Source: an uncultured virus (IMG/VR IMGVR_UViG_3300020451_000536) (lineage: Duplodnaviria > Heunggongvirae > Uroviricota > Caudoviricetes). From it: a stretch of 64,000 bases of DNA. Of the stretch, positions 1 through 64,000 are shown piece after piece (position 1 is the stretch's first letter; each line of letters starts with the position of its first letter). The notes below the pieces were generated by a model that saw nothing but the letters and a program-made list of their open reading frames with translations, was not told the origin of the DNA and ran no database searches. A program made the position numbers and the translations under genes. The DNA lies in IMG/VR virus record IMGVR_UViG_3300020451_000536; one strand, written 5' to 3'.

Positions 1-1
1 C

Positions 2-580
2 TGTCATATCATATATTGTTTTTGCAACTATTGGTTTAAATTGTGTTGCAATATAAGTACCTAATCTAAATGACATAATATAAATTCTACCATTTAGTTC
101 TTTAGTATCATTAACATTACGAAAGATAGGCCCAAATGCACCCCACAGATTATCACCATCATTCCACCTTTTTACTGGTGATTTATAACCATAAGAACCA
201 CACTCTAATCTTAAATCATTCATAAAGAAATCAGAACAATAATTGAATTTAGGTGGGGCACTAATTACACCTAATCCATATTTACTATATGGATATTTGT
301 AATCATCATATTTTTCATGAACTCTATCTTTTTGGTTTAGTGTTATATAATCGGTAAAGTCTGCACTTTGTAATTTACGAAAATTATCAACAACCTTTTT
401 CTTTTCAAATTTTGCAAGTGGAAATGGTGGTTTTACATTTGTAATATATTCTGCAAGAGTCTTACGAAAATCTTCTTTACCATAGTCATCTATGGTTTTA
501 AGAAATAATTCTGTTCTCATAACTGGTAAACCAGTTTCATCAGAACATTTTCTTAATAAATCATATAGTTCTTTATTCAC
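2..580 (-). CDS. Partial ORF (runs off window), probable SAM-dependent DNA methyltransferase N-terminal half
   Basis: GTG at 580 overlaps the gp43 stop (TAGTG). The frame is open to the window edge and ends ...FRLGTYIATQFKPIVAKTIYDMT, a segment I recall preceding the SAM-binding motif in marine phage MTases. Catalytic motifs lie outside the window. Confidence 0.55.
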   Translation of the reverse strand, partial: MNKELYDLLRKCSDETGLPVMRTELFLKTIDDYGKEDFRKTLAEYITNVKPPFPLAKFEKKKVVDNFRKLQSADFTDYITLNQKDRVHEKYDDYKYPYSKYGLGVISAPPKFNYCSDFFMNDLRLECGSYGYKSPVKRWNDGDNLWGAFGPIFRNVNDTKELNGRIYIMSFRLGTYIATQFKPIVAKTIYDMT

Positions 581-3066
581 TAAAAGAAATCCTCAAGTGT
601 ACCTTGTGTTCCATAGGTACGGTCTATATTCCATTTTATCGTATTTAAAATTAATGTCAAGGGGTCAATGAAAACTTTTTCAAACTGTATATCGTAATCA
701 ACAAAACTGTGTATATCAAACTCTTTAGGAAGTTTGGTAATGTATGTGATTACATTTGAAGTAAAAGGATTAGGTTGTTTTAAATAAACAAACTTAATCT
801 TATCTCCCTCTTGTATCAAAGGATATTTGTTTATAAGTTTATTTTGTTTTATCTTGTGATTGTATATCAACGCACCTTTTATGTGCATAGGTGTTGACTT
901 TTTAAATGTTGTTCCACTATCAAAGTATTTTGATAAACCTTTTACTGAACGAGGAAACGAAATCAGTTCTGGTTTTACTTTAAGAAACTCTTCTCTAAAA
1001 TTAATTACAAACTTGTTTAATTCTTTTTCATCACTTGTCATTATAAGTTCAAGTGCATCTTTAATCTTTTGTCTACACATTGCAGGCGTTGATGACTTGA
1101 CAGCTTCAATACCCATCATCTTCAACTTAGGTTCTTTGTATGATACACCTTCACTATCCCAAACATTTAGAATATATCTTTTCTTTGCAACCCAAATACC
1201 TTTGTCTGCAATCACTTCTCGTTTCATAAACATCTTGTTTGCAAATGCATTTGTGTATTGTTTAAGTTCATCATACGATTTTGTAATATATGGTTCAATA
1301 GATTCTGATGCAACCTTATCTAGAAAGTTTATTGTTTTAGATAATGCATTATCACTTTTAATTGTTTCAGTAACAAGTTTATCCATAGTCAAATAAACAG
1401 AATCAGTATCAGATGCAATCACATAATCTTCATCTGTTTTTAAAATATTGTTTAAGTATTTGTTAAGTTTGTTTTCAATCCAACGAATAGATAACTGACC
1501 ACTCTTTGTAATACCCTCTGCAATCGCTTTGTCGTAATAACGAAAGTATTGATTACCTATTGCACCATAAGCAGAGTTCAAAGAAATCTTACGAGCCATC
1601 TGAATATTGTTATAACGACTTATCAGTTTTTTATACTTGTTGTCTTTTGTGTTTTCAAATTCTTGTTGTGCAGATAACATTTTCTTTTTGTAAGTCACTC
1701 GTTCATTGTATAACTCTTCCATCATAGTTGGTAAGAAACCTTTTTTATCTGTTCTAAACAATGCACCATTTGGTGTCATAGTAGTTTTGTCTGGTATGTT
1801 TAGTTTGATACCTTTTAACATATCATCAACTGTAATATCTTGATGTTTACTTTTTAGTAATGTTTCTGGTGAAAGATTATACTGCATAATCAAATGTGGA
1901 TATAGTGAATTCAAATCAAATGACACAACCCACTTATGTAAACCAGTAATTGGTTCTTTTACATATGCACCTTCATATTGTTCGTTTTTACTGTGTGATG
2001 ATTTTTGTGGTATAACAATCTTTCTTTTTCTCAAGAAGTTGTAGATTAAAATATCCCAATATTTAACTTGACCAAATACATCTGAATAATTTACTTTACC
2101 CTCATAGGCCATAGTAAGTGCAAGGTCAATCAGACCCATTTTATCTTCTAGTTTATCAACGATTTCCACATCTTGAATATTGTAGTCAATGAAAGATTGA
2201 AAGTCATTTTCATACCACTCTCTAAATGTTTCATATGGATTTTCATCTTTCTTTTCACCAAGTTCAACACTTGCGATATAATCTAACTTGTATGATTCTT
2301 GTCTGGTATAAGTAAACTTCTGATAGAGTTGTAGGTAATCATATTGTGATACACCCATAATATCATACATCAAATGGTTTCTACCCATACTATAAATTTG
2401 TTTAGAACTAACATTTTTCCAAGGCGATAGTTCTCGCATTTTATCTTCACCACAAACTTGTTTGATTCTATTTGCAAGATAAGGAATATCAAAGAAGTCT
2501 GTATTCCAACCAGTAATGACATCTGGATAATTCTTTGTCCAGAAAGACATAAACTCCATAATCAAATCGTGTTCGTTAGGACAACGAATATAAGTAACAT
2601 CTTCTCTTGTATTCTTGTAAGGTTGAATACCCCACACTATAATCTTTTTAGATTGTTGATTTTTTACTGTAATAGAAAGTAAAGGTTCTATTGCAGATTC
2701 TGGATTAGGAAAACCATTCTCACATTGAACCTCAATATCAATCGTCATAATTAATAGTTTATCAATGTTCCAATTTACCTTTTGTGGAAATGTATCTGAA
2801 ATATATGTGTATGCGAATCTGTTTAGTCCGTGAACAAGATGAGGCTGACTTTCATATTTAAGAAGAAAGTCTTTTGCATCTTTTATACAATTAAATTGAT
2901 ATGGTGTTACAGACTTACCATCAAGAGTTTTCCAATCAGTTTGTTTCATTACTGGAACAAACAAAGTTGGTTTGTATTTTAATCTAAAATTAACTCTTTG
3001 ATTTTTATCAACACCACGAACTAAAAGAAAATTACCCCATTGTACAACATTAGTATAAAAATCCAT
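580..3066 (-). CDS. gp43: Family B DNA polymerase (T4 gp43)
   Basis: ExoI DIEV, YNIQDV, SFDLNSLYP, KISLNSAYG, SDTDS, KKRY motifs; 828 aa, no intein. Confidence 0.98.
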   Translation of the reverse strand: MDFYTNVVQWGNFLLVRGVDKNQRVNFRLKYKPTLFVPVMKQTDWKTLDGKSVTPYQFNCIKDAKDFLLKYESQPHLVHGLNRFAYTYISDTFPQKVNWNIDKLLIMTIDIEVQCENGFPNPESAIEPLLSITVKNQQSKKIIVWGIQPYKNTREDVTYIRCPNEHDLIMEFMSFWTKNYPDVITGWNTDFFDIPYLANRIKQVCGEDKMRELSPWKNVSSKQIYSMGRNHLMYDIMGVSQYDYLQLYQKFTYTRQESYKLDYIASVELGEKKDENPYETFREWYENDFQSFIDYNIQDVEIVDKLEDKMGLIDLALTMAYEGKVNYSDVFGQVKYWDILIYNFLRKRKIVIPQKSSHSKNEQYEGAYVKEPITGLHKWVVSFDLNSLYPHLIMQYNLSPETLLKSKHQDITVDDMLKGIKLNIPDKTTMTPNGALFRTDKKGFLPTMMEELYNERVTYKKKMLSAQQEFENTKDNKYKKLISRYNNIQMARKISLNSAYGAIGNQYFRYYDKAIAEGITKSGQLSIRWIENKLNKYLNNILKTDEDYVIASDTDSVYLTMDKLVTETIKSDNALSKTINFLDKVASESIEPYITKSYDELKQYTNAFANKMFMKREVIADKGIWVAKKRYILNVWDSEGVSYKEPKLKMMGIEAVKSSTPAMCRQKIKDALELIMTSDEKELNKFVINFREEFLKVKPELISFPRSVKGLSKYFDSGTTFKKSTPMHIKGALIYNHKIKQNKLINKYPLIQEGDKIKFVYLKQPNPFTSNVITYITKLPKEFDIHSFVDYDIQFEKVFIDPLTLILNTIKWNIDRTYGTQGTLEDFF

Positions 3067-3073
3067 AATGTAT

Positions 3074-3101
3074 ATTATATCACCTTTTTAAAAATAGTCA
3101 A
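3074..3101 (-). promoter_or_regulatory. sigma70-type promoter for gp43
   Basis: TTGACT-N16-TATAAT with extended -10 TG; ATG 7 nt after the -10 box. Confidence 0.65.
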
Positions 3102-3337
3102 CCCTCAAATAGTTCATCAATTTCTGGAAAATATTTTTTCATTGCATCAATTAAATCTTCATAATGTGCAACTTCTTTTAACTCTTTTTCTATTTCGTTA
3201 ATAATATCACCGTGTTCACCTATTCCAACTGGATTTGAGAGTAACACCTCAACATTTGCAAGATGTTTTTTAATATGTCCTTCTGAATGAGCTAGAAAGG
3301 CAGTTATAAGTCTATTTCTAATCGCTTTTTGGTTCAT
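3098..3337 (-). CDS. Conserved hypothetical protein of marine T4-like phages
   Basis: ORF with NPVGIGEHGDI motif; ATG at 3337 after AGGA preferred to the 3361 start. Confidence 0.7.
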   Translation of the reverse strand: MNQKAIRNRLITAFLAHSEGHIKKHLANVEVLLSNPVGIGEHGDIINEIEKELKEVAHYEDLIDAMKKYFPEIDELFEG

Positions 3338-4905: not shown

Positions 4906-4913
4906 AATAACTC

Positions 4914-5852
4914 CTATTTAAATTTACACTCACCCATCATCTGTGTTAGACAAGCAAGTAAATTAATTTCTTGGTCGGCAACAAATGCAGCTTTGTATTG
5001 ATAGTCTGCAATCAATAAAACTGCTGTTGCGATTGAACGACCATCTTCAAAATACTCATAAAGATTGTCATACATTTTTCTAAATATTCTAGCAGGGTCA
5101 TTGTCTAGATTATTAACAACCCACTTTCTCATACTTGTAAAATCTTTTTCTCTCAAGAATGTGATTAAATCTCTCATATTCTTTTCAGATAGATTTACTA
5201 ATATTCCACTATCAATTTGTCCAGAGGTAGAATATCTTTGTAATTCATTAAGACATCTTCTCCAATCTGGAAAGAACTTCATAATTAATTCTGCAACAAC
5301 TCTTTCTTCAAACTTTACATTCTCTGTTGTGAGAACAGTTTTAATACTAGACATAAATTGTTTTGCAAGATTAGGTTTTTCAGTTTTAGGAATATTAAAT
5401 TCAACAACACTACAACGACTATGTAAAGGTTCTATGATTCTATTCTTAAAATTACAAGTAAGAATAAATCCACAGTTCTTGTGGAACTCTTCTATCATAC
5501 CACGAAGTGCTGGTTGTGTTGATTGTGCATTTAGATAATCTGCCTCATCAATAATGATAAACTTTCTACTACCTTCTAACGACATAGTAGATGCAAAGTT
5601 CTTCATCTTATTACGAAGTACATCAATACCAGATTCTTCAGAACCATTAATCATAATATAATCATAACCTATTTGTTCTAACATCGCCTTTGCAACTGTT
5701 GTTTTACCAACACCAGGCCCTCCAGTTAGTAATAGATTAGGAATACCATTCTTAACAAACTCAGAAAAAGTTTTCTTTAGATTTTCTGGTAATACACAAT
5801 CTTGTATAGTTTTAGGTCTATACTTCTCAACCCATAAAAAGGTGTTATTCAT
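4914..5852 (-). CDS. gp44: Clamp loader large subunit (AAA+)
   Basis: LWVEKYRP, Walker A GGPGVGKTT, IIDEAD, SRC motif. Confidence 0.97.
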   Translation of the reverse strand: MNNTFLWVEKYRPKTIQDCVLPENLKKTFSEFVKNGIPNLLLTGGPGVGKTTVAKAMLEQIGYDYIMINGSEESGIDVLRNKMKNFASTMSLEGSRKFIIIDEADYLNAQSTQPALRGMIEEFHKNCGFILTCNFKNRIIEPLHSRCSVVEFNIPKTEKPNLAKQFMSSIKTVLTTENVKFEERVVAELIMKFFPDWRRCLNELQRYSTSGQIDSGILVNLSEKNMRDLITFLREKDFTSMRKWVVNNLDNDPARIFRKMYDNLYEYFEDGRSIATAVLLIADYQYKAAFVADQEINLLACLTQMMGECKFK

Positions 5853-5861
5853 TTAACTCCC

Positions 5862-9948: not shown

Positions 9949-10401
9949 TCACCTATTACATTGTTTAAGTTTAACTTCTTGCAATCCCAAACCTGGCATT
10001 ACAACATTAAGTGTCTCTATTCTACACTCAATTCTTTGTTTTGTCAAGTCCCTAACTTGACAATTTAAATTTTTAGTTGATTCTAATGTTTCTGGAACAA
10101 ATTCTTGTAATAATCTTTCTTTTGCACGATTAACTGCATTTTGACAAGCCTCATTTTCTGACATATCTGGAGTAAATATATAATCTTGTGAAGTCATATA
10201 CCACTTACCTAATATTTTTGCTTTGATTAATACTTTACATTTCTTTGTTTCTCTAAAATATTCTGTTACTGTTTTATCTTTTACGATTACTGAATCTACT
10301 GTACCTTGCATAGTAGATGTGGTTTGATTATCATATTCACAAGGATTTGTTGCGAAAACAAATGATGGTAGTAAACACAATATACTAATCTTTTTAATCA
10401 T
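9949..10401 (-). CDS. Secreted Cys-containing hypothetical protein
   Basis: Signal peptide ending VFA; six Cys in the mature part. Confidence 0.7.
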   Translation of the reverse strand: MIKKISILCLLPSFVFATNPCEYDNQTTSTMQGTVDSVIVKDKTVTEYFRETKKCKVLIKAKILGKWYMTSQDYIFTPDMSENEACQNAVNRAKERLLQEFVPETLESTKNLNCQVRDLTKQRIECRIETLNVVMPGLGLQEVKLKQCNR

Positions 10402-11848
10402 AAAATCCTTCTAGTGTTGATTTAGTTTCTACTGATTCTATTCTTGCACTCGCAATATTAAAATATTCTTCCTCTTTTTCTATACCTACAAAATCAAAGT
10501 TTTCTTCTTTTGCAGCCATACCAGTTGAACCACTACCCATAAATGGGTCTAATACTGTACCACCTTTTGGTGTAATCAATCTACATAAATATTTCATTAA
10601 CTTAATAGGTTTTACTGTTGGGTGTACATTTTTACTTGGTGCTTTTTCACTACCAAATTTACCAGATGCAGAGTTTACATCATCTTCATACCATACATTA
10701 TTTGATGTTCCACCACCACCTTTTTTATTTTTAATTGGAAAATTATTTAATCCTTGATTTCTTTCTGCCTTTGATGTTTTTGCACAATAGAAATATCGTG
10801 ATGCATCTCCACTATCCTCATATTCTATTGTATATTGTAAAGATTTCATTCCAGAATTATTATTTGTCCAAACTTTATCATCTTTTCTAGGTTGTCGGTT
10901 TACTGTTTTTCTTTTTACATTTTCTGTTTGACCAAAACTTAATTTATCTATACCCATATTTTCTTTAGATTGACGGCCTTGGTCACGAAAATCTGGATTA
11001 GTATCTGGATATTTTGCTTTACCCTTTGTACCAGTTTTTGGGAATATGTCTTTCACAACATCACTACCATCGTGAATTACATTTGCTGGAAATCTACCAT
11101 CTTTAGTTCTCTCTTTTATTTCCTCTGGTGTGATTTTTCTTATTTTAAATGTGTCAGAATCTTGATAACCTTTTCCACCACCACCAGTTTTATGCCACCC
11201 ACTTCTGTCATTTTCATCTGCATATTCAACTCTACATTCATCTATATTGATACCACCAGTTCTATGTTTTAACACATTATCTACAACAGATTTTTCTGAT
11301 AAAGGTTTTCTTGCAAGAACTAAAGGTTCGTGTGCTGGTTTAAGTGCAGTACCCCAACCTTCCCATTCAGTTGTTCCTACTGTTACATCTTCATCTACCT
11401 CTTGACCAAATGCACCAGCACCTATCGCTGTTCTTTGTTCTGATTGTTTTATACCCTTATTAGAGTGTGTCTTCTTTTCTCCAGTTTTAATTCTTTCATT
11501 ACCTAGTTTCTTATCTAATGCTTTACCAACATTCATACTCTTTGGAAATCCAGAACCATATAACCACATTACTTGGTCACGAATCTCAAAACCAGCATCT
11601 TCTATTGCAACTGCCATTCTATGATATGTTCTACTTCCAGAAAATGCAAGTAGATGTCCACCAGGCTTCAATACTTTAAAACATAGTTCCCAAGTTTCTT
11701 TTTGAAATGCAATACCAGTAGAATCCCAACTTCTTCCCATAAAACCTAATTCATAGGGTGGGTCTGTAACGATAGAATCAACGAAGACCTCATCTTCTAT
11801 CATCATCTTTAGAACATTTAAACAATCGTAGTTATGTAATCTTATCAT
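10394..11848 (-). CDS. DNA methyltransferase, N6-A/N4-C beta class
   Basis: TDPPY (motif IV) N-terminal; HPTVKP; VLDPFMGSGSTG (motif I) C-terminal. Confidence 0.93.
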   Translation of the reverse strand: MIRLHNYDCLNVLKMMIEDEVFVDSIVTDPPYELGFMGRSWDSTGIAFQKETWELCFKVLKPGGHLLAFSGSRTYHRMAVAIEDAGFEIRDQVMWLYGSGFPKSMNVGKALDKKLGNERIKTGEKKTHSNKGIKQSEQRTAIGAGAFGQEVDEDVTVGTTEWEGWGTALKPAHEPLVLARKPLSEKSVVDNVLKHRTGGINIDECRVEYADENDRSGWHKTGGGGKGYQDSDTFKIRKITPEEIKERTKDGRFPANVIHDGSDVVKDIFPKTGTKGKAKYPDTNPDFRDQGRQSKENMGIDKLSFGQTENVKRKTVNRQPRKDDKVWTNNNSGMKSLQYTIEYEDSGDASRYFYCAKTSKAERNQGLNNFPIKNKKGGGGTSNNVWYEDDVNSASGKFGSEKAPSKNVHPTVKPIKLMKYLCRLITPKGGTVLDPFMGSGSTGMAAKEENFDFVGIEKEEEYFNIASARIESVETKSTLEGFYD

Positions 11849-23214: not shown

Positions 23215-24555
23215 TTACATTAAGTTAGCGACTTTAACTCTTCTGTAATATTGGTTAGTTTCTTTAGTAAATGCAGTATTTGAAGAACCAGCATCGTTAT
23301 TATCTGCTAACGCACCAGCGTCTACAGCGAATGGGTTATCAATCATACCGTATCTAGTTTTGAAACCGATTTTTGGTTGGAAAGTTTGCTCACCAACTGC
23401 TCTCACCATTTGTAGTGGAACATATGGGCAATAGAAAGTACCAGCATCATAAGGTGAAGTACCTTTATATCCAACAACATAGTATTGACTTGCAGCTACA
23501 TTTGCAGCATATGGGTCAACATATACTCTGTAACGACCATTCAATACACCAGCAAAAGTGTTTTGAGTGTCATCTACTTGTAGGTTGTTGTTTAATGCAG
23601 ATTGGTAATCTAGGATTCCAGCCATTTGTAAAGCAGAAGCAACATCAGCACTTACTAGTAAGATGTTACCTTTCCCTCTACGAGTTTTTTGACCGATTGC
23701 ATTTGCATCTCTTTCAATCTGGAACATTAGTCCTTTGAATTTCTCAACAGACCATCTACCGTTAGAGTCTGTGTCTAAGTCAAAAGTACCAGCAGTAGTT
23801 GTATTTACAGCAGCACCTTCTACGGCAGTTCTGTAAATTCTTCTTACTACTTCCCTATTGATTTCTGCAAGAATTTCAGCAGAAAGGATGTTTGCAAGTT
23901 CTGTTTCTGCATCAAGACCGTGAATTGCTTTTAAGTCTTGTGCAAGTTCCATTGTGTATTCAGCTTTTAGTGCTCTAGACTTTGCAGTTACAGTTGATTT
24001 CTCAATAGAGAAAGCCATTTGTGCAAAGTGGTTTTGAGAACTATCACCTAATGCTTCAGCTTGTGCAGCAGTCATACCTTGTGAAAAAGTATAAGTACCT
24101 TCTGGTGAATCATTAAGTACACTTGGGTTAGTACCTTGTTGTGCAGTTGTTAGTGAAGATGATGCGTTATCAGCAGAATGTTCTGCATCTGCTTCATCTA
24201 CTAATGCTTCTGCACCAGACTGGTCATCAAATCTTGAACGCATTGCGAAGATTAAACCAGTTGGGCCAGTCATTGGTTGCACACCACAAATGTCATATGC
24301 AATCAAGTTAGGCATAGCTCTTCTGACTAGTGAGATTAAAATGGGATCCCAGTTTGCCATTGGATTAGCACCAGCAGCAGTTGCGTTAGTTGGAACTGCT
24401 TCTGACAAGAAAGAAGCATCTTCTCTGAGTGCCTTTTCTTGGTTCTCTAAAATAACAGTAGTGACGGCTCTTCTGTAAGCATCGTTGATTTTTGGTAAAT
24501 CTGGATGGTCTAGAACGGGCTGCCACTTCTCTTGTAAATGTGTTGTTTGAAACAT
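23215..24555 (-). CDS. gp23: Major capsid protein
   Basis: LISLVRRAMPNLIAYDICGVQPMTGPTGLIFAMR, SRALKAEY..ELAQDLKAIHGLDAE.EL, FQPKIGFKTRYG. Confidence 0.99.
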   Translation of the reverse strand: MFQTTHLQEKWQPVLDHPDLPKINDAYRRAVTTVILENQEKALREDASFLSEAVPTNATAAGANPMANWDPILISLVRRAMPNLIAYDICGVQPMTGPTGLIFAMRSRFDDQSGAEALVDEADAEHSADNASSSLTTAQQGTNPSVLNDSPEGTYTFSQGMTAAQAEALGDSSQNHFAQMAFSIEKSTVTAKSRALKAEYTMELAQDLKAIHGLDAETELANILSAEILAEINREVVRRIYRTAVEGAAVNTTTAGTFDLDTDSNGRWSVEKFKGLMFQIERDANAIGQKTRRGKGNILLVSADVASALQMAGILDYQSALNNNLQVDDTQNTFAGVLNGRYRVYVDPYAANVAASQYYVVGYKGTSPYDAGTFYCPYVPLQMVRAVGEQTFQPKIGFKTRYGMIDNPFAVDAGALADNNDAGSSNTAFTKETNQYYRRVKVANLM

Positions 24556-31517: not shown

Positions 31518-31844
31518 ATGAGTGAACATTATCAAAAATACCGTAACACAATACGAAAAGTTGCACGAAGACACCGTAGATTAAAAGACAAATGGATTAA
31601 CGAACAGTTAAGAGATAAATCTTGTAAATATTGTGGTGAATCTGAAATAGTTGTATTAAAATTTTATCCAGATGATAGAAAGATTCGTGCAGATTCTAAA
31701 AAGAAAAGTTTAAAAAAAGATACTAGAAAATTGTTATTAGAACAAATAGATAACAATGTAATAGTCTGTCATAACTGTTTTTTGAAAAAAGATAATGATT
31801 TAATTGATGAAGATTCATTTACCAATTTGTATCATACTTCCTAA
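31518..31844 (+). CDS. HNH-like zinc-finger protein, apparently degenerate endonuclease
   Basis: CKYCGE...LKFYPD...VIVCHNC; the only sizeable plausible + strand gene; preceded by CTAAATA. Confidence 0.65.
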   Translation: MSEHYQKYRNTIRKVARRHRRLKDKWINEQLRDKSCKYCGESEIVVLKFYPDDRKIRADSKKKSLKKDTRKLLLEQIDNNVIVCHNCFLKKDNDLIDEDSFTNLYHTS

Positions 31845-33459: not shown

Positions 33460-35249
33460 TGAAGTGAAACACCGTGAATAGTATTAACATGAGATAATCC
33501 AGCACCTACTATTTTCCAGCGAACTTGTACTTGAGGACTTGCTGAACCAGTTAAAGGTGTACTACCAGTAAATATTTTAGTTCCAGAAGAACCAGATACA
33601 TACCCAGTATCTGTTAAAGTTATTGCATTAAAAGTTGTATTATCTCTAGTTGCAGATGCAGTTAGTTCTGAATTTAATGCACTATTAATTTCTGCGAATA
33701 CCACTATTCTTGCTTTAGTCGGAGTAGAACTTGCAGTAAATGTATCAGATATTAAGGTTGTTGATGTATCTGATATATTACCTTGTATTTCTTTAACAAT
33801 AACAACACCAGGCCCACCATCTCCTCCAACAGCACCACCAGCAGGAGTGGAAGGATTAATATTTCTTGCACCAGCTCCACCTCCACCACTATTTACAGCA
33901 CCAGGCAAGCCAGGAAACCAATTTGGTTGTACTAATGGGGTGGTGTTTGTATCTCCACCACCGAAAGGTACTGAAGTACCTTCTGGAAATTCGCCTGCAC
34001 CAGCACCAGCACCACCACCAGCATAACCTACTGATGTAGTACCATCTGCAATATTATAAAGTAAACCATTACCACCCTCTCCACCGATAGGGCCTTCTGC
34101 ATCTCCACCAACACCACCAGCGCCGCCACCACCAGCAGTTGCTAGTTCACCCCCAGCATCTGGTTGATTTACACCACCATCATTTCCAAAACTTCCAGGC
34201 GAATTTACTGGTAAAATTGAAGGACTTAATGGAATAGGATGATTTTCATCTTGTTTACCTTCCCCACCAGGCCCCATATATGGCCCAGGCCCAGCACCAC
34301 CACCACCACCAGAACCACCCTCGTGATAAGTTTCACCAGATACACCACCCATATATGGATGCGAACCAGAAGTTAGATAACCACCACCAGCACCTCCACC
34401 TTCACCTATAAGAGGCCCGAAAGATGAATCAGAACCAGTTTCGCCAGGTGAATAATATGTATGTGCCATTGGGTATGAATATTGTGGGTGTTCATAACCA
34501 CCGAATTCGCCAGTTCCTACACGGCCATCTGGTCTTGCAGTAGGAGTGTAAGGTGTTGAACCAGGCGCTGGAGGATTATATCCAGCACCTTCTCCACCAG
34601 CACCAACCACTACTGCAACTGTACCACCAGGCGTTACTGGATAATTTGGATAGTATATTAAACCACCAGCACCAGCACCACCACCTTTAACAGTATTATA
34701 ACCACCAGAGCCTCCACCTCCACCACCTCCAACAACTAAAACATTAACACTCGTAACTCCAGACTCAACAGTATATGTGTGGGGCCCAGTTGCTGTAAAT
34801 GAAAATATATTTTGAGTTGGTGGAGTAGAGGGCATAAAACCAGAACCACCAGAGTAAAAATCTGAAGAACTATCATATGTTACATTAGAATTTTCAGCAG
34901 TATCTATACCAGACTCATCATTAAACTCATCCACAACACCATCTTTTAAATTAAATATTGTGAGTCCCTCTGCGACTGCCATTTTAAAACCTAATACACC
35001 AATATTAAAAGTATTTGTATCTGATTGTGCTACATTTGCAACTTGAAATGCACCAGCACCATTTAATAATTCTGATGCACTACCAGGCAAATTTAATTTT
35101 GAAAATGCAATACTAGCTTGTGGTGATACATCTGTATTTGCGATAGTATTATCTAATATTATATCTGAATTAACACTACTATCTGCAAGTTTATCAGAAT
35201 CTAATGCACTATCACCAATAAGATTTTTATTTACTTTTGTTATTCCCAT
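33450..35249 (-). CDS. Gly/Pro-rich modular virion protein, paralog 7 of 7
   Basis: Family N-module FNIGVLGFKMAV.EGLTIFNL.DGVVDEF; Gly-rich core; C-module ending IHGVSLQWA. Confidence 0.85.
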   Translation of the reverse strand: MGITKVNKNLIGDSALDSDKLADSSVNSDIILDNTIANTDVSPQASIAFSKLNLPGSASELLNGAGAFQVANVAQSDTNTFNIGVLGFKMAVAEGLTIFNLKDGVVDEFNDESGIDTAENSNVTYDSSSDFYSGGSGFMPSTPPTQNIFSFTATGPHTYTVESGVTSVNVLVVGGGGGGGSGGYNTVKGGGAGAGGLIYYPNYPVTPGGTVAVVVGAGGEGAGYNPPAPGSTPYTPTARPDGRVGTGEFGGYEHPQYSYPMAHTYYSPGETGSDSSFGPLIGEGGGAGGGYLTSGSHPYMGGVSGETYHEGGSGGGGGAGPGPYMGPGGEGKQDENHPIPLSPSILPVNSPGSFGNDGGVNQPDAGGELATAGGGGAGGVGGDAEGPIGGEGGNGLLYNIADGTTSVGYAGGGAGAGAGEFPEGTSVPFGGGDTNTTPLVQPNWFPGLPGAVNSGGGGAGARNINPSTPAGGAVGGDGGPGVVIVKEIQGNISDTSTTLISDTFTASSTPTKARIVVFAEINSALNSELTASATRDNTTFNAITLTDTGYVSGSSGTKIFTGSTPLTGSASPQVQVRWKIVGAGLSHVNTIHGVSLQWA

Positions 35250-37039
35250 TGTAATGATACTCCGTGAATTTTATTTGCACCACTCAAAGATGAACCTACT
35301 ATTTTCCAACGAAGTTGAACTTGTGGACTCGCTGAACCAGTTAAAGGAGTTGAACCAGTAAATATTTTAATACCAGAACTTCCTGCTTCAAAACCCTCGT
35401 CTGTAAGAGTTATTGCATTGAATGTACTATTATCTCTTGTTGCACTTATAGTAAAATCAGAAAGACCGTCTGGTAATTCTGCAAATACTACAATTCTTGC
35501 TTTAGTTGGTGTTGAACTTGCAGTGAAAGTATCTGATACTAAAGTCATACTTGTATTAGAAACATTTCGTTTACTTTCTGCAACTATTATAATACCAGGC
35601 CCACCATCACCACCGTATGCACCACCAGCAGGAGAAGAAGGATTAACATTTCTTCCACCAGCACCACCACCTCCACTATTTACAGCACCAGGCAAGCCAG
35701 GAAACCAATTTGGTTGTTGATGATTAGTTTGATTTGTATCTCCACCACCAAAAGGTACTGAAGTACCATCTGGAAAACCAGGCGTATCAGAACCAGCACC
35801 ACCACCAGCATAACCCACTGATGTAGTACCATCAGCAATATTATAATTTAATCCTATACCACCAGCTCCACCAGCTTCTCCACTTCCTTCAACATCTCCA
35901 CCAACACCACCAGCGCCACCGCCGCCACCAGCTGCAGTGTCAGTAGGAACATCTGGTTGTAATGTACCACCATTATTACCAAAACTTCCAGGCGAGTTTA
36001 CTGGTAAAACTGATGGAGTCAATGGTATTGGATGATTTGCAGTTTGTTTACCCTCTCCACCAGCACCAACATAACTTTGTGGCCCAGAACCACCAGCACC
36101 ACCACTTCCACCTTCGTGATAAGTTTCACCAGATACACCACCCATATATGGATGTGAACCACTGGTTAACCAACCACCACCAGCACCTCCACCTTCACCT
36201 ATAAGAGGCCCAAATGCAGAATCAGTACCAGTTTGTCCAGGCGAGTAATATGTGTGTGACATTGGATAACTATATTGTGGATGTTCGTAACCACCAAATT
36301 CACCAGTTCCTACACGACTATCTGGTCTTGAAGTTGGTGTATAAGGTGCAGAACCAGGCGCTGGAGGATTGTACCCAGAACCCTCACCACCAGCACCTAC
36401 TGATACTGAAACTGAACCACCAGGCGTTACTGGATAATCTGGGTAATAAATTAAACCACCAGCACCAGCACCACCACCTTTAGTATAATTATAACCACCA
36501 GAACCACCACCTCCGCCGCCTCCAACGACTAATACATTAACTGTTGTAATGCCAGGTTCAACAGAATATGTTCCAGAACCAAGTGAAGTAATAGATGTTC
36601 TACCTACTTCTGGAGAAGGTATAGGAATATTTGTTCCTTGATTCGTATAAAAATCTGAACTAGAGTCGTAAGATGCAGTAACATTTTCAGCAGTATCTAC
36701 GCCAGATTCATCATTAAATTCATCTACAACACCATCTTTTAAATTAAATATTGTGAGTCCATCATTAACTGCCATCTTGAAACCTAAGACACCAATGTTA
36801 AATGCATTTTCATCAATACCAGTTGTATCAATAGCACCAAATGAACCATCACCACGAACAAATTGTGATGGTGGGCCAGGTAATGCAACCTTAGTTGCTG
36901 AAATGTTTGCACTAGGAGAAATATCTTCATTTGTAATTGTTGCACTTATTTTAGAAGTATCAACTGCACCAGTATCTATTTCTCCACTTCCAATAGAATC
37001 ATTACTTAAATTCTGATTTTCTAACTTAGTTATGCCCAT
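35240..37039 (-). CDS. Gly/Pro-rich modular virion protein, paralog 6 of 7
   Basis: Same N/C modules; core very similar to 33450..35249. Confidence 0.85.
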   Translation of the reverse strand: MGITKLENQNLSNDSIGSGEIDTGAVDTSKISATITNEDISPSANISATKVALPGPPSQFVRGDGSFGAIDTTGIDENAFNIGVLGFKMAVNDGLTIFNLKDGVVDEFNDESGVDTAENVTASYDSSSDFYTNQGTNIPIPSPEVGRTSITSLGSGTYSVEPGITTVNVLVVGGGGGGGSGGYNYTKGGGAGAGGLIYYPDYPVTPGGSVSVSVGAGGEGSGYNPPAPGSAPYTPTSRPDSRVGTGEFGGYEHPQYSYPMSHTYYSPGQTGTDSAFGPLIGEGGGAGGGWLTSGSHPYMGGVSGETYHEGGSGGAGGSGPQSYVGAGGEGKQTANHPIPLTPSVLPVNSPGSFGNNGGTLQPDVPTDTAAGGGGGAGGVGGDVEGSGEAGGAGGIGLNYNIADGTTSVGYAGGGAGSDTPGFPDGTSVPFGGGDTNQTNHQQPNWFPGLPGAVNSGGGGAGGRNVNPSSPAGGAYGGDGGPGIIIVAESKRNVSNTSMTLVSDTFTASSTPTKARIVVFAELPDGLSDFTISATRDNSTFNAITLTDEGFEAGSSGIKIFTGSTPLTGSASPQVQLRWKIVGSSLSGANKIHGVSLQWE

Positions 37040-38931
37040 TGTAGTGCAACTCCGTGAATTTTATTTGTACCAGTAAGTGATGAACCAACAACTTTCCACC
37101 TCATCTGAACTTGTGGACTAGCACTTCCAGTTAAAGGAGTTGAACCAGTATATATCTTAATACCACTTGAACCACTTACATATCCAGTATCAGTTAATGA
37201 TACTGAATTATATGTAGTATTATCTCTTGTGACTGATATTGCAACATCGGTATTTAAATCATCTGCTAGTTCTGCGAATAAAACAATTCGTGAAGTAGAT
37301 GGTGTTGAGTTTGCAGTAAAAGTATCTGATACTAAAGTCATACTTGTTGAACTTGAACCAGCATCAAAAACTAAAAGAATACCACCATCACCACCAATGT
37401 TTGTAGTACCACTAGCTGCACCTTCACCTTGAGCTCCAGCTACAAAAAGTGCTTGTCTTGGTGACGGTAATGCAGTATAATATGGTGCTTCATCAAACAC
37501 ACTTAATGGAGCAGGATGTGAATTTCTACTTCCAACTGCTGTTTCATATTCTAAAGATGGAGTGGGAACATATGTAGGATTAGAATATCCAGCACCACCA
37601 CCAGCACCTCCAGTATAACCGCCTGGGTCAGATGTACCACCACCTCCGTGATATCCAGAACCACCACCACCATAATGATAAGGTGGATAAGCAATACCAC
37701 CACCTTGAAAATGTATTGCATCTGGATGTGGAGATTCTTGTGTCCACTCTGCTGGGCCAAACCCAGAACCCTCACCAAAAGGGTATGACCCTAAATGTCC
37801 GTTTGCTTCTTGGTCTGCACCACCACCAGATGCATTAGTACCACCAGAACCAGCAGTAGGTACACTAAAACTACCAGAACCATTAGTACCAGCAGTAAAT
37901 CCACCACCACCAGCTTGTGCTTGTGGAGCACCATTTGAGTTCTCACCACAAGCACCAGAACCTACAATTAAAACTGATTCACTTGCATTAGTTGGGGAAA
38001 CTGTATCTGCAAAACCTGGCCCTTCATCTGGATAAGTGCCAGGCGAATCTGGTTGATGATGAAGTCCAATTTCATTATATGCACCACCTTCTATAATTGT
38101 AACTTCACCATCAAAAATTCCAGTAAAACCACCACCGCCACCAACAGCACTACCACCTCCACCACCATAACCACCATTACCACCTATTTGTGGAGCTGTG
38201 TATTGAGGGGTACTGTATTGTGGGCCAGTAGCACCTTCACCAACAACATAATCCCAAGTCGCACCAGCAATAGATGGACTTGTTATTGTACCTTGTACAC
38301 TACCACCAGAACCACCAGCACCATTACCATTATTAGCACCACCAGCACCAACCATAGTTGCTTCTATTGAAGTTGTTAATGTGGGAAATGTGATACTACC
38401 TTGAGTTCCAAATGCACCGAATGTTGCCTCTTGAGAAGTATATGTAATTAATGGTGCGTGTTCTGGGTTTTCAAATGTAACTGCATCTACACCGAGATGC
38501 ATTGCAACACCAGGCGTAGGTGATAAATTTTGATAAAAGTCTGATGCAGATTCATAAGCTGCGTTAGAGTTTTCACTAGTATCAATACCACCCTCACTAT
38601 TAAATTCGTCTACAATACCATCAACAAGATTAAAAATAGTCAGTCCTTCATTGACCGCCATTTTGAATCCTAACACACCAACATTAAATGCATTATTACC
38701 TACTGCACTTAAATCAACAGCACCAAAACTTCCATCACCTTTTAAAAAATCTGATGAACTTCCAGGCAAACTAAATTTATTTAATGCGATTGCAGCTGAT
38801 GGAGAGATATCAGTATCAACTATTGATGCGTTTGATATATCAGCAGATGAAACTGAATTAGGTTGAATCTGACTAGAACTAACTTTACCAGAGTCTTGAA
38901 TCATCTCACTGTTTACTTTAGTATCAGACAT
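37030..38931 (-). CDS. Gly/Pro-rich modular virion protein, paralog 5 of 7
   Basis: Same N/C modules; most divergent core. Confidence 0.85.
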   Translation of the reverse strand: MSDTKVNSEMIQDSGKVSSSQIQPNSVSSADISNASIVDTDISPSAAIALNKFSLPGSSSDFLKGDGSFGAVDLSAVGNNAFNVGVLGFKMAVNEGLTIFNLVDGIVDEFNSEGGIDTSENSNAAYESASDFYQNLSPTPGVAMHLGVDAVTFENPEHAPLITYTSQEATFGAFGTQGSITFPTLTTSIEATMVGAGGANNGNGAGGSGGSVQGTITSPSIAGATWDYVVGEGATGPQYSTPQYTAPQIGGNGGYGGGGGSAVGGGGGFTGIFDGEVTIIEGGAYNEIGLHHQPDSPGTYPDEGPGFADTVSPTNASESVLIVGSGACGENSNGAPQAQAGGGGFTAGTNGSGSFSVPTAGSGGTNASGGGADQEANGHLGSYPFGEGSGFGPAEWTQESPHPDAIHFQGGGIAYPPYHYGGGGSGYHGGGGTSDPGGYTGGAGGGAGYSNPTYVPTPSLEYETAVGSRNSHPAPLSVFDEAPYYTALPSPRQALFVAGAQGEGAASGTTNIGGDGGILLVFDAGSSSTSMTLVSDTFTANSTPSTSRIVLFAELADDLNTDVAISVTRDNTTYNSVSLTDTGYVSGSSGIKIYTGSTPLTGSASPQVQMRWKVVGSSLTGTNKIHGVALQWA

Positions 38932-46750: not shown

Positions 46751-46753
46751 AAT

Positions 46754-50333: not shown

Positions 50334-53300
50334 TTATCCAGTTGCAACAACCCTTAATCTTTTTAAGATTGGTGGGTTAGTAGAATCCGTTCCTCTCATT
50401 CTTATTTTTATTTGGAACGCATTAAAGTCTGCAAGGTCTTTCGCAGAGTATTCGTGTTCTATGAAGTCATCTCTTGTAGTAGATGAGTTAGTAGTAACAT
50501 CTGGTTGTCCGTTTGTATTAAAGAAAGTATAACCGACATCATTAAAGTCTGATGAGTCATCTGTTCTTAATGTTTTAAACATTACATCAATAGTTGATGT
50601 TGCTGGTCTAACTGCATCAAATTTAACATTTATCTGATTAGCTGCACTCTTCATCTGAACTTGTCGTGTTAGATATATTGCTTCTAAACTATCACCTTCT
50701 GGTTCAGTTGCTGGAACAAACAATGTAGTTGGATAGACATCTGATGAACTTTGAATATTATTCAGTCTATGAGTTACAGCTGCAATAGATGCTCTATCTA
50801 AATCAACGACTGGTGTTAAGTTATCAAACTCTGAAGTCATAGTCAAAGTTAAGAAGAAAGATTTAGATGAGTTTAATTCATTTGTTTCATTAATAGTAGA
50901 TGCAACCATTCTTGGTACATCGTAATAATAGTTTCTACCTAATACTATCGGTCTAGATGCACTGGTCGCTTGTAAATTAAATGATGTTTGTGTACCATCA
51001 ACAGATGTTGCAGTTGTCGTTCTGATGTTTGCAGTAATTTTTGTATTAGGATATTCAACATTACTTACAAGTGGTTTCATAACATCCATCATTGCGTTTT
51101 CAGTTGCAATAGTTGTACTACCACCAAATTTAATACCAGCGGTTGCAGTTGCAGCTGTTGTTGCAGTTGCAGTTTGAGTTGCAACTGAATTTGCAGTTGT
51201 AATTGTATACGAATCAATTCCTACATTTCCAACTGCTGTGTGAGTTCTATTAATCTGGTCTAATGGTATTCCATCTATTTCATATAGTTCAATAGCAGCA
51301 CCAGAAGTATGTGCAATCGCACCAGTGGGTCTTGTTATACTGGTTACAGAAGAACCAGAAATAGTACCACTAAAGATTTCATCTTCTCTTATTGCACCAG
51401 TAGTTGAATCTCTTGGAACTGTAATTTTTAATCTTACTGAACCACTGCCTGGAAACCCAGTATTACTAGTTAATGTAAGTGAAGTATCTGAAGCACCAAA
51501 AGCACCGTTAAGAGTTGTATTAACTCCAGAAGATACACCACTTATATTAACATTGTTTGTTGTTGCATACATATGGTGATTTCTATGTGTAATTTTTACA
51601 ACACCAGAACTTGCTAATGATTCTAATGGATTTTCTTTTAATGTTCTATTTTCTGTTGGTGCATTTGTTAATACTAGATTTGATGTTTTACTTGTATCAA
51701 ATTTTGCACGATAAATTGTAAACTTAACATCTTCATCTTGATATGCGTTCCAAGTTCTATTGTTTTGAGATTTAAATAACACACCAAGATATGGTTGGTC
51801 ATTCACAATCGTTCCACTATCAATATCTGCATCACCTAATTTAGAAATCCATAACTTATAATCTCTTGAGTCTGTTTTGATAACTAATGCATATTCACTA
51901 TGGTCTGCAACATAAATTGGTGATTCAAATTCAAATGTTGTAGCTACAGTTGCATCATCCGATAATAATATTTCAGAAGATTCTAATGTTTTAGATGCAA
52001 GTGGTAATAGTTTTTCAGTTGGATAACCATCTCTCATTTCTCTAATTTGAATGGTTACTGGAACTCTTTCATCTTTTTCTTGAAAATATAAATCTACTTT
52101 TGTGATGAATTCACCACCAACACTGTCAACAATAAATGATTGAGCAAGGGGATCCCACGGTTGTATCAAAGTTCTACCTCTGTGTTGGAATTGTCTTGCT
52201 TCAAAAACTTCTTCTTGGAATAATTGTCCGTTTCTTGTTCTTGTAACAGTTTCTTCAATAGTGTTTAAGAAACCTCTTGCAGTATAGATACCCTCTGCAT
52301 ATGTTTCAACACCCTCTAAATTAACATCATCTGCTTCATTTATTCTAGATGAAGTCAATCTGAATTGTCTTTCACCAGTTTTAAATGATGGATTGCCTGG
52401 AGCATTAGGGTCTGGTATACTAAAGACACCACTTATTGAACCAGTTGGGCCTGTGATAAATACAGAACCATCTTCGCCAGGTGGTAATAGTTTCTGAACA
52501 GTTCCACTTTCTGGAGTTTGTGTTCTTGTTCCAGTAAATAAGTTATATGTAATCTGAAGAACAGAATCTCTCATTTCTTCTGCAACACCAATATTACCAG
52601 GCGTTACTGCACCAACTGGAGGAACTATACCATCTATACTCGCACTTGGATTTGTTAAGTTTTGGAATTGTACAACAGAACAGAATTGTGTTAAATCAAT
52701 ATTAGTTGTTGCATCTGCATTAAAGAATTCTACACCATATAATCTGTGTCCAGCACAAGTATGAATAGGGTCTACTGCTCTTTCAATTTGGATTCTCCAA
52801 AACTTTTCACCTTGAATATTTGGGCCAACAACACCCTCAGCTGCAGTTGTAAAGTCATAACTATAAAACGCATTACTTCCTCTTGCAATATTAATTGTAG
52901 TGTGTAATGAAAATTGTCCTACTGTATTGAATCCGTACTCTGAATCAGAACTCATAATTTTTGCAACATAATCGTTTGCTTGGTCTGTGTTATCATAACC
53001 AAATCTAATTTTACCTACGGCAGTCCAGTTTGGAGTCTCTGGTAAAGTTATAGTTGTTAGTGTACCACCAGGCTTACCACCGTCTGGAGTACAGAAAGTT
53101 CCAATAAATTGTCTATCAAAGAAAGGATAAACTCTTGTTTTAGGTTTCATTTTAGATGCTCTAAATGTTACATTTCTAGAACGAATAAATGGAACTACAT
53201 CTTGTCTAATTAATTCATTACCGATAGGTTTATGGTCATTAACTTCAGTTACAAAAGTTCTTGTACCAGTTCTAACTTGGTCTGTTAAAACTAATTCCCA

Positions 53301-57677: not shown

Positions 57678-57679
57678 TC

Positions 57680-59197: not shown

Positions 59198-59213
59198 TGT
59201 TATTCCTTCTTAC

Positions 59214-59220
59214 TATTTAG
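59214..59220 (-). promoter_or_regulatory. Variant late promoter for gp8
   Basis: CTAAATA in the intergenic gap before AAGGA SD. Confidence 0.5.
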
Positions 59221-59226
59221 TCCATC

Positions 59227-59520: not shown

Positions 59521-59529
59521 TAGTATCTC

Positions 59530-60714: not shown

Positions 60715-60748
60715 CTTAATTCCTTTTATTTATTATATTTATCACAAT

Positions 60749-62314: not shown

Positions 62315-62317
62315 AAC

Positions 62318-63970
62318 TTATCCCCATTGTAATGCAACACCGTGTATTTTATTTTCAGCTGTTTGATTACTTCCAACTATTTTCCAACGAACTTGTACTT
62401 GAGGACTTGCAGTTCCAGTTAATGGAGTAGAACCAGTAAATACTTTTGTACCACTACTTCCACTTACATAACCAGTGTCTGTTAATGTGATTGCATTAAA
62501 GGTTGTGTTATCTCTCGTTGCAGAAACTGTTACATCTGTATTTAAATCATCACTTATCTCTGCAAATAAAACTATTCTTGCTTTTGTTGGTACTGAGTTT
62601 GCAGTAAATGTATCTGATATCAATGTGCTACTTGCAGATGTAGCTAAACTTTCCATTTCTAATACGACTATTTGTCCACTACCACCATCACCGCCTGGAA
62701 TATTATAATAAGAGGGGCCTGAACCACCTGGCCCACCACCGTGTGAACCACCTCCACTACCAGTGTTCACAGCACCAGCATATCCAGTATCAGCTGCTAA
62801 AGTATGTGTGTTCTGTGGATTGTGGTTTCCATCACCACCACCACCTTCACCACCTTCTGTTTCACCGCCTGGTGCATATCTACCACCAGAACCACCACCA
62901 GCAACCTTACCGTCTGGATGACCATAACCAGCAGGAAACCAATTTAATTGTGGGTTAGGAGGCCCTACTGCAATACCATCACCACCAACACCAGCATTTG
63001 CACCACTAGCAGCTGTTCCGACTGCACCAGCACCACCTCCACCTCCACCAGCATAACCTGGCCCAGAGGCATATAAAAGACCACCGTCAAATCCTTGTTG
63101 TGTGAAATCTCCAGCAGGGTGTCTATTTTCTCCAGTTTCACCTTCACCTACTGTACCATGTTCATATCCAGCACCCCCACCAGAACCACCAGGCAATCCG
63201 TCTACTAATTCTTGGCCAGGAAAATCTGGGTCAGATGCAGATGGGTCAAAAGTATATCCGTGTCCACCAGCACCACCACCTTCTGCTGTAATTGTTGGGC
63301 CGAAAGTTGAATCATTGCCTGGTCGTGAGTGTCTTCCGCCTGGATATTGAGGATTTGTTAATGAAAGAGGAAAGATAGTTGGAGCATCGCCAGGAAAATA
63401 TGGTTGTATTGCTGTTGGATAAGATGGGTGATAAGGATGAAATCTACCTTCACCACCAGCACCAACATTTACTGCAACACTAGCACCACCAGTTACTGGA
63501 ACATCAGCATCTAAAACGACACCACCAGCACCACCACCGCCGCCTCCACCAATACCCATTCCACCACCACCACCAGCACCACCACCAGCGATTGCAAAAA
63601 CTTTAACGACAGTTGTAGTTGGTTCATTTGAAAATGTACCAGGCCCAGTTGATGTTATTTGGGTTAAACCTGCTTGTGGAGATGGAATAGGATTAGGGCC
63701 ATCTAAATTTGAATAGAAATCAGAAGTTGCATCATATTGATTGGTTACATTTTCTGCTGTGTCTATACCACTTTCATTGTTAAATTCATCAACAATACCA
63801 TCAACTAAATTAAAGATTGTCAAACCTTCATTGACTGCAATCTTAAATCCTAATACACCAATATTAAAAGCATTACCATCTGTTGCACCACTTGACTTTG
63901 CAGCTGCATTTAAATCATCTGTTGTGACTGAACCATCGGTAATATTGTCACCAGTAATTTTTGTAGTCAT
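62318..63970 (-). CDS. Gly/Pro-rich modular virion protein, paralog 1 of 7
   Basis: Family N/C modules. Confidence 0.85.
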   Translation of the reverse strand: MTTKITGDNITDGSVTTDDLNAAAKSSGATDGNAFNIGVLGFKIAVNEGLTIFNLVDGIVDEFNNESGIDTAENVTNQYDATSDFYSNLDGPNPIPSPQAGLTQITSTGPGTFSNEPTTTVVKVFAIAGGGAGGGGGMGIGGGGGGGAGGVVLDADVPVTGGASVAVNVGAGGEGRFHPYHPSYPTAIQPYFPGDAPTIFPLSLTNPQYPGGRHSRPGNDSTFGPTITAEGGGAGGHGYTFDPSASDPDFPGQELVDGLPGGSGGGAGYEHGTVGEGETGENRHPAGDFTQQGFDGGLLYASGPGYAGGGGGGAGAVGTAASGANAGVGGDGIAVGPPNPQLNWFPAGYGHPDGKVAGGGSGGRYAPGGETEGGEGGGGDGNHNPQNTHTLAADTGYAGAVNTGSGGGSHGGGPGGSGPSYYNIPGGDGGSGQIVVLEMESLATSASSTLISDTFTANSVPTKARIVLFAEISDDLNTDVTVSATRDNTTFNAITLTDTGYVSGSSGTKVFTGSTPLTGTASPQVQVRWKIVGSNQTAENKIHGVALQWG

Positions 63971-64000
63971 TTAATTATCCTATACTACTAAATATCTGAC

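Follow-up and report, generated by a model that had tools for sequence, protein, structure and literature searches.

The 64,000-nucleotide stretch of the uncultured virus IMGVR_UViG_3300020451_000536, which at its full length we call the window, encodes the core genes for replication and virion structure of a marine myophage of T4 type, with all large genes on the minus strand and a G+C (GC) content of 33.6%. At the DNA level its closest isolates are the Pelagibacter phages HTVC008M and Mosig, the Methylophilales phage Melnitz and cyanophages, all of them Kyanoviridae. Near the left edge lies a gp43-like DNA polymerase gene (580..3066, minus strand; phrog_262, E 0), whose stop codon marks the start of a polymorphic modification island; of this island the window retains the first 193 codons of a 420-residue SPPY-type N6_N4 methyltransferase (2..580, minus strand). 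Here we describe a rule of word usage that runs through the window on both strands (1..64000), whereby CCWGG occurs only as GCCWGG or CCWGGC, GGNCC only as GGSCC, and CCTG/CAGG is purged unless flanked by G, and we weigh its relation to the enzymes encoded in the island.

Purged words and codon choice at forced sites

Word counts were compared with a null of 200 synonymous-codon shuffles, in which codons were exchanged between sites encoding the same residue so that both the proteins and the codon usage were preserved. We termed a CCWGG flanked if it read GCCWGG or CCWGGC, and unflanked if it read HCCWGGD. The total of 85 CCWGG sites matched the expected 83.2, because the sites are forced, and their contexts were confined to one class: 40 have a preceding G only, 44 a following C only and one has both, so that all 85 are flanked. 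Unflanked sites were absent where 73.2 were expected (the lowest of the 200 shuffles gave 62), and GCCWGG/CCWGGC counted 86 against 10.3. GGNCC showed the same division, with an unremarkable total (60 vs 60.2) made up entirely of GGSCC (60 vs 7.4) and with no GGWCC (0 vs 52.9). An initial annotation of this DNA, made by eye, had claimed that the CCWGG sites, roughly 80 by its reckoning, always read GCCWGG or CCWGGC, and the flank tabulation bears this out; among its examples, there is no site near 46152 (the nearest are at 46065 and 46173), and the one placed at 63319 exists and starts at 63318.

A series of further words was depleted, namely GATC (2 vs 143), ACGT (0 vs 92), TCGA (0 vs 83), CCGG (0 vs 20.6) and CGCG (0 vs 6.0). 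The absence of TCGA, ACGT and CCGG and the presence of TGCA, AGCT, GGCC and GCGC (631, 118, 72 and 10 copies) had both been noticed by eye, and the codon-shuffled null that the annotation had proposed as a check placed HCCWGGD, GGWCC and GATC far below expectation. Taken alone, the fact that TGCA, AGCT and GCGC persist says little about a modification context. Besides CGCG, the counts revealed depletions that the annotation had not listed: CATG (13 vs 91.5), CCCG/CGGG (2 vs 34.5, both remaining copies being GCCCG), the CCTG/CAGG core and the 6-mers AGTACT (0 vs 27), CAATTG (0 vs 31), CTATAG (0 vs 20) and GTGCAC (0 vs 8.8).

The 4-mer CCTG/CAGG forms a depleted core around CCWGG. HCCTGW occurred once against approximately 198 expected, whereas GCCTGH was fully tolerated (23 vs 22); ACCTGC, which reads GCA on the other strand, occurred once against 72, and TCCTGC and CCCTGC together 16 times against 31. 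Both CCTG and CAGG are depleted on the coding strand, and the cause therefore acts on DNA and not on mRNA, which also rules out a translational origin through internal Shine-Dalgarno-like CAGG. Overall, the depleted words are short and mostly palindromic, and they are depleted on both strands against a codon-preserving null, as is characteristic of restriction-site avoidance.

The codons at the remaining sites show how they are accommodated. All 85 CCWGG sites are in-frame Pro-Gly pairs, with none in the two other, avoidable frames. Glycine after proline is written GGC in 41 of the 85 cases, compared to 73 of 1790 elsewhere, and in each of the remaining 44 the codon upstream of the pair ends in G (44/44, at a third-position G baseline of 7.7%), as the initial annotation had read them. 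The G-ending codons used there are otherwise rare (ACG makes up 2.9% of Thr, TCG 2.1% of Ser and GGG 3.1% of Gly codons). The site at 5713..5717, for example, reads GGG CCT GGT (Gly-Pro-Gly) on the coding strand, where the rare upstream GGG would provide the shield. Gly-Pro pairs were likewise written exclusively with the rare glycine codons GGC or GGG (55/55), in keeping with the earlier statement that these two codons are used and that no GGACC or GGTCC occurs.

The two GATC sites (24345..24348 and 52151..52154) allow the avoided words to be ranked. As the annotation had noted, both lie at Trp-Asp-Pro, written TGG GAT CCC, and they are the only two [Met/Trp]-Asp-[Pro/His/Gln] tripeptides in the window. 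Aspartate preceding a C-starting codon is otherwise written GAC (82 times, never after a G-ending codon) and GAT at these two positions only. As GAC would create GGACC at both, avoidance of GGWCC outranks avoidance of GATC. A similar compromise is found at His-Val pairs, which account for four of the 13 CATG sites and are written CAT GTN, since CAC GTN would give ACGT. Both GATC sites also use CCC, a codon that makes up only 27 of the 836 proline codons, which yields the 8-bp palindrome GGGATCCC.

The context in which words are spared is G-C-C, which fits better than any GC. A G-C-A context, as in GCATG and GCAGGT, gives no protection, and the bases beyond the flanking G are without influence. 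We rejected any GpC as the shield in favor of GCC or GCY, given that only one of the 13 CATG sites is GC-flanked (GCATG/CATGC 1 vs 18.5) and that ACCTGC, which is GCAGGT on the other strand, is nearly absent as stated above. Of the phage mark in a GC or GCC context that the initial annotation had suggested, the GCC version is supported indirectly by the enzymes of relatives and by their association with the rule across the loci described below, and the version with any GC is not.

Two further deviations concern GC-containing words, with the same tendencies in Melnitz: TGCA and TTGCAA are over-represented in the window (631 vs 441 and 85 vs 39), and GCTA/TAGC and AGCC/GGCT are depleted (96 vs 274 and 44 vs 88).

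The island after the polymerase gene and the word rule in relatives

The island, which ends at the UvsX gene, varies, and relatives diverge from the window at the end of the polymerase gene. Among contigs that are 95-97% identical over the polymerase gene we found three island types. Type A encodes a 399-residue C5-cytosine methyltransferase, followed by a 326-residue Tet_JBP dioxygenase (TET) and four open reading frames (ORFs), one of them cytidylyltransferase-like; the methyltransferase and the dioxygenase were found in eight contigs of the window clade (L083, L088, L090, L099, L100, L111, L121 and L176). Type B, seen in six contigs plus the window, encodes the 420-residue methyltransferase with the motifs DTSMGWGD and FTSPPY, and two of its contigs additionally carry a 208-residue SPPD methyltransferase. 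Type C encodes a 374-residue DruA-like protein in the same place. The initial annotation had advised a search for a C5 methyltransferase elsewhere in the genome: there is none in the window, and siblings of type A, at 95-97% identity, carry one directly after the polymerase gene.

The C5 methyltransferase of the relatives contains all catalytic motifs, and the TET protein of the relative G003 matches PF12851 (E 1.7e-13) and has HID and H in its sequence. The solved structure nearest to the methyltransferase is CmoX of phage S-B43 (8yf3, E 1.4e-70), with which it shares the SPPC motif; in the alignment to 8yf3, it has Leu at the position of CmoX Arg350. Because the carboxymethyl-binding Arg is absent, we take the enzyme to be a methylase, which agrees with its pairing with TET. 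TET lies alongside the C5 methyltransferase in 63 of 75 loci and is its sole conserved partner; apart from TET, no conserved partner gene or nuclease was found in the island for either the C5 methyltransferase or the SPPY enzyme.

The methyltransferase fragment in the window is 95.9% identical over its 193 residues to the orthologue at L102:12487-13749. As the window holds residues 1-193 only, the catalytic half and its motifs lie beyond the left edge, and the piece alone has no Pfam match. The orthologue contains motif I and an SPPY motif IV, the motif signature usual for N4-cytosine enzymes, and matches PF01555 (E 8.3e-07). It has neighbor clusters in the Atlas that are automatically named cytosine-N4-specific, and its neighbors there and in other databases have either no name or an automatic one; an Atlas search with the neighboring 403-residue ORF gave no result. 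Judging from its motifs, the 420-residue methyltransferase is probably N4-cytosine-specific. It belongs to a family that is abundant in marine phages, with at least 1,713 database proteins.

The window encodes a second N6_N4 methyltransferase of 484 residues (10394..11848, minus strand), with a TDPPY motif, a strong PF01555 match (E 1.4e-35) and DpnA/CcrM-type matches in the PDB. From its motif it probably acts on adenine and has no link to the word rule, and we consider it unlikely as the writer of a cytosine mark: a homologue of its motif-I region occurs in the lineage L095, where the rule is not kept, and no homologue exists in Melnitz. A long insert separates its catalytic part from its S-adenosylmethionine-binding part; this insert of approximately 290 residues is rich in Gly and Lys and contains no second same-strand ORF of at least 60 residues. 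The enzyme is about twice as long as its PDB relatives.

We quantified the word rule in sets of metagenomic loci that were defined by their enzymes. The C5 set comprised 593 kb in 72 loci that do not belong to the window clade; adding three loci that do gave 21 clusters at 90% identity. In the 72 loci, only 4 of 117 CCWGG sites were unflanked, and GGWCC counted 29 against 236 for GGSCC; by cluster, HCCWGGD was absent from 19 of 21, with a total of four. These clusters range in GC content from 0.30 to 0.40, and their avoidance of GATC, ACGT, TCGA and CATG differs from one to another. The 60 loci (475 kb) with an enzyme at least 67% identical to the SPPY methyltransferase behaved alike, with 1 of 101 CCWGG sites unflanked and 4 GGWCC against 183 GGSCC. 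Most of the 38 clusters of SPPY loci keep the rule, whereas GC content and the other purged words vary among them; among relatives at 52-64% identity the rule weakens (32 of 78 unflanked). A C5 methyltransferase of the G003 clade co-occurred with the SPPY enzyme in none of 88 SPPY loci. By contrast, 69 marine T4-like loci found by their terminase (the TerL set, 681 kb) had 575 of 764 sites unflanked and 430 GGWCC against 89 GGSCC, and not one of the 69 was free of unflanked CCWGG. Likewise, 42 of 58 sites were unflanked in 17 loci that are near the window clade by polymerase and have either no C5 enzyme or one of another clade (38-40% identical).

When 54 distinct UvsX sequences were placed in a tree, neither the island types nor the rule formed separate blocks but were interleaved, and well-supported branches force at least six changes of the rule label. 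Its rows of types A and B comprised 22 with the rule, one without it and 11 too short to call, compared to one with and 11 without for the other methylase clades, and five with and two without for type C.

Two contigs, L122 and L126 (G002:C1:1322-3494), are approximately 86% identical to the window in nucleotides at the polymerase end and carry two tandem C5 methyltransferases, which share 38% identity with that of type A, and no TET; they do not keep the CCWGG rule.

The isolates agree with this distribution. Melnitz carries a C5 methyltransferase, 76% identical to that of the relatives, and a TET gene directly after its polymerase gene. It lacks unflanked CCWGG (0 vs 67), with all 68 of its CCWGG sites flanked and 66 of these at Pro-Gly, lacks GGWCC (0 vs 60) and lacks unflanked CCGG (HCCGGD 0 vs 52, with 15 of 15 CCGG sites flanked), while CCTG as such is unpurged. 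S-B43 lacks HCCGGD as well (0 vs 160, with 8 of 8 CCGG sites flanked) and purges neither CCWGG nor GGWCC. HTVC008M and Mosig, which have no C5 methyltransferase, also purge neither CCWGG nor GGWCC.

Over their whole records, these two Pelagibacter phages present a mirror image of the window, with GGSCC purged (1 vs 17 in HTVC008M and 0 vs 19 in Mosig) and GGWCC at expectation; HTVC008M is in addition short of TCGA (2 vs 205) and Mosig of ACGT (0 vs 240). Marine T4-like lineages more generally (L013-L080 and L171-L173) each have their own set of missing 4-mers: CATG and CCGG are missing in loci of GC content 0.41-0.45, TGCA is nearly missing in L033, L035, L037, L041 and L042, and AGCT and GGCC are nearly missing in L171-L173.

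Recoding, a predicted cytosine mark and competing explanations

We think it probable that the window reflects a two-part escape from restriction, in which recoding is combined with a phage cytosine mark at forced, G-flanked sites. In the first part, synonymous changes would remove every avoidable GATC, ACGT, TCGA, CCGG, CGCG, GGWCC and CCWGG/CCTG, most CATG and several 6-mers. The sites that the proteins force, Pro-Gly (CCN-GGN) and Gly-Pro (GGN-CCN), would be written GCCWGG, CCWGGC or GGCCC/GGGCC, which places their outer C in a G-C-C context; in the second part, a short-motif, phage-encoded cytosine-modifying enzyme would mark that outer C and thereby block cleavage. Recoding and mark would work only together. 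The writer would be encoded in the swap locus between polymerase and UvsX: in type A siblings and Melnitz this would be the C5 methyltransferase with TET, acting through a GpC[C/T] pathway from 5-methylcytosine (5mC) to 5-hydroxymethylcytosine (5hmC), and in the window variant the SPPY methyltransferase would be the equivalent writer, producing probably N4-methylcytosine at GCC, as predicted from its association with the word rule across loci. The word statistics, the codons chosen, the genes carried by relatives and the association across loci are observed; that the mark exists on the window DNA, that the SPPY enzyme writes it at GCC in this genome and that selection comes from host restriction enzymes we infer; the GpC[C/T] and GC specificities are taken from published papers.

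A coupling of this kind would explain why the CCWGG/GGWCC purge occurs mostly together with a candidate writer, because a purge would gain nothing as long as every 64 kb still held approximately 85 forced copies open to cleavage. For the removal of GGWCC, codon choice would be enough, and yet its purge is almost confined to phages with a writer, an association that hints at N-centered cutters (GGNCC, CCNGG), in line with the initial annotation. A broader proposal, to which we give slightly less than even credence, is that GpC-limited marks exist to patch the few CCNGG and GGNCC sites forced by the code, with recoding clearing all others, and that the swap locus exchanges non-homologous GCC writers, namely the C5 methyltransferase with TET, the previously uncharacterized SPPY family as a predicted short-motif GCC N4-cytosine methylase, and perhaps the DruA-like gene.

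Several findings weigh against the combination of recoding and mark. The rule is also kept by three contigs of the window clade (L085-087) in which a DruA-like gene replaces the methylase, and in the same way by a distant lineage (L330-L337) whose polymerase is 45% identical, and neither PF00145 nor PF01555 was found in the rule-keeping contigs of DruA type, which span 22-51 kb and are 12-28% complete. The Pfam match of the SPPY enzyme is marginal (29.6 bits at a cut-off of 26.7) and its DNA target is a prediction only; a PDB sequence search with it returned no relative, and Foldseek gave only generic matches to class-I S-adenosylmethionine-dependent methyltransferases at a TM score of approximately 0.3. 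In the window itself, tblastn with the relatives' enzymes detected neither the C5 methyltransferase nor TET, no C5 family appeared among the window ORFs scanned, and the five 2-oxoglutarate oxygenase-like genes assigned by PHROG comprise three of PF13640/PF13759, two with no Pfam match and none of PF12851. The window makes no use of G-flanked CCGG (0 sites), and its GCATG enjoys no protection, which is expected under GCY yet shows that a G flank is no general shield. HTVC008M has no C5 methyltransferase and yet shows a partial G-flank bias at CCGG (unflanked 10 vs 36, flanked 45 vs 29). Finally, this reading accounts neither for the purge of CCTG nor for the choice of CCC next to the two GATC sites.

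As a third writer, the DruA-like gene gave mixed results, with the rule kept in the window clade and in lineages at 69-73% identity, and not in those at 75%, 66% and 57% or in HTVC008M. In L333, of the distant rule-keeping lineage, a radical-SAM/SPASM gene and then a short-chain-dehydrogenase-like gene come after the DruA-like gene (L333:9995-12678, plus strand), a neighborhood that may be another DNA-modification cluster.

The word rule could also arise with no phage mark at all, if a host enzyme failed to cut CCWGG (or CCGG, CCTG) after G, so that HCCWGGD would be its effective site and codon choice would exploit the gap. Such a flank-sensitive enzyme would fit the sufficiency of a single flank on either strand, as with one spoiled half-site of a symmetric enzyme, as well as the rule-keeping contigs with no visible methylase and the partial bias at CCGG in HTVC008M. 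We nevertheless consider it unlikely, as one and the same G flank rescues several words (in the window CCWGG, CCTGW and CCCG, in Melnitz CCWGG as well as CCGG, and in S-B43 CCGG), and as the rule accompanies methylases of two unrelated families (132 loci) and is absent from the 69 loci of the TerL set and the 17 of the polymerase set. No restriction enzyme, moreover, is known to us that requires H and D on the outer sides of CCWGG, which counts against this explanation as well.

Alternatively, the signature might be a relic that arose under the C5 methyltransferase and TET, after which the window variant would have swapped to an SPPY methylase of unrelated specificity with its flanks still undecayed. 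The close similarity of types A, B and C in the window clade, approximately 95-97% over the polymerase gene, leaves too little time for erosion, and the target specificity of the SPPY enzyme rests on prediction, both of which speak for a relic. However, SPPY lineages whose enzymes are only 67-79% identical keep the rule, with the single unflanked site in 101 reported above and with differing GC content and other purged words, and none of the 88 SPPY loci contained a C5 methyltransferase of the G003 clade. At such divergence synonymous sites would have been randomized unless selection were ongoing, and we hold a relic to be decidedly improbable.

Least convincing, and in our judgment very improbable, is selection by the phage's own nucleases, which would cut host DNA at words of the CCWGG, GGWCC and CCGG type with the phage genome itself purged and marked, as a partial analogue of T4 hydroxymethylcytosine and its host-DNA nucleases: the near-universal CCWGG/GGWCC purge with two methylase families, while other purged words vary by lineage, would fit an agent that travels with the phage, but the island has no conserved nuclease partner (TET alone accompanies the C5 methyltransferase and nothing conserved the SPPY enzyme), and the coupling would follow from host restriction alone if purging pays only where forced sites can be shielded.

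Relation to known systems and further features of the window

Avoidance of restriction sites, above all of palindromes, is a classical property of phage genomes, and the window resembles it in that, on either strand, short palindromes are much rarer than a null with preserved codons predicts. It differs in that the purge is complete down to protein-forced sites, with the remainder channeled into one flank context, and in that among the sampled relatives the CCWGG/GGWCC purge goes mostly with a particular modifying enzyme, the lineages of DruA type being the exceptions. Restriction can also be blocked by an overlapping methylation site, a familiar example being the sensitivity of laboratory enzymes to Dcm or Dam overlap. 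The window shares with this the predicted protection by bases outside the recognition site that form a second, overlapping methylation motif; here, by contrast, the overlap appears to be set by selection at every unavoidable site of the genome, an evolutionary use and not a laboratory nuisance.

Among described phage enzymes, C5 methyltransferases paired with TET have been reported to methylate GpC[C/T], with TET then making 5hmC that is extended by glycosyltransferases (Burke et al., PNAS 2021, PMC8256090), and the contig maps of that paper include DNA polymerase and CTP-transferase genes. Type A siblings and Melnitz share with these contigs an adjacent C5 methyltransferase/Tet_JBP pair beside the polymerase, with a cytidylyltransferase-like gene nearby, and the published GpC[C/T] target coincides exactly with the context in which sites are spared here (PMC8256090). 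The window genome differs in that its locus is occupied by a methylase of the SPPY N6_N4 type, and the paper, as far as its accessible text goes, reports enzymology and not a genome-wide signature of purge plus shield (PMC8256090). In a follow-up preprint (10.1101/2023.12.21.572611), the discoverers of the phage pathways of C5 methyltransferase, TET and glycosyltransferase deemed GpC-limited marks unlikely to protect the genome broadly, and they left the function of these marks open. The footprint described here suggests a role for them, as such a mark need not be broad if recoding clears the avoidable sites and the mark covers the forced ones.

CmoX of Synechococcus phage S-B43 acts at GC motifs; its modification has been measured, and its Arg350 binds the carboxymethyl group (Yang et al., Nat Commun 2025, PMC12783734). 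Compared to this CmoX/CmoA system for 5-carboxymethylcytosine, the relatives' C5 methyltransferase shares the SPPC motif, and CCGG in S-B43 likewise survives only when G-flanked; the relatives' enzyme differs in the Leu at the Arg350 position and in being partnered by TET instead of CmoA, and S-B43 lacks the purge of CCWGG and GGWCC. Literature searches that included PMC8256090, PMC12783734, preprint 10.1101/2023.12.21.572611 and the Melnitz paper PMC9004378, each in its accessible part, found no prior report of the word rule. Site avoidance and GpC-specific phage marks were already known separately, and for their coupling at code-forced sites, as well as for an unrelated SPPY family with the same footprint, the literature searches returned no earlier account.

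The footprint lets the target of the abundant marine phage SPPY methylase family be predicted from sequence. It may also predict restriction specificities acting on phages of SAR11- and OM43-type bacteria. Such hosts are usually thought poor in defense systems, and SAR11 hosts to carry few restriction systems. More generally, flank bias at forced dipeptide sites offers a simple computational marker for short-motif DNA modification in uncultured viruses.

Further genes of the window include those for the clamp, clamp loader, a gp46/47-like nuclease, the late sigma factor, UvsW, UvsY, portal, sheath and baseplate wedge, together with the major capsid protein (23215-24555, minus strand), the large terminase (31819-33459, minus strand) and a 2447-residue baseplate protein. 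Many of the forced Pro-Gly sites lie in three tandem Gly/Pro-rich structural genes (33450..38931, minus strand). These belong to a set of seven paralogous minus-strand genes of 514-633 residues, arranged in tandem groups of three, two and two (33450-38931, 45206-48334 and 60749-63970), which probably encode fiber or structural proteins; six of the seven match phrog_2295, and the ORF at 37030-38931 has no PHROG family match.

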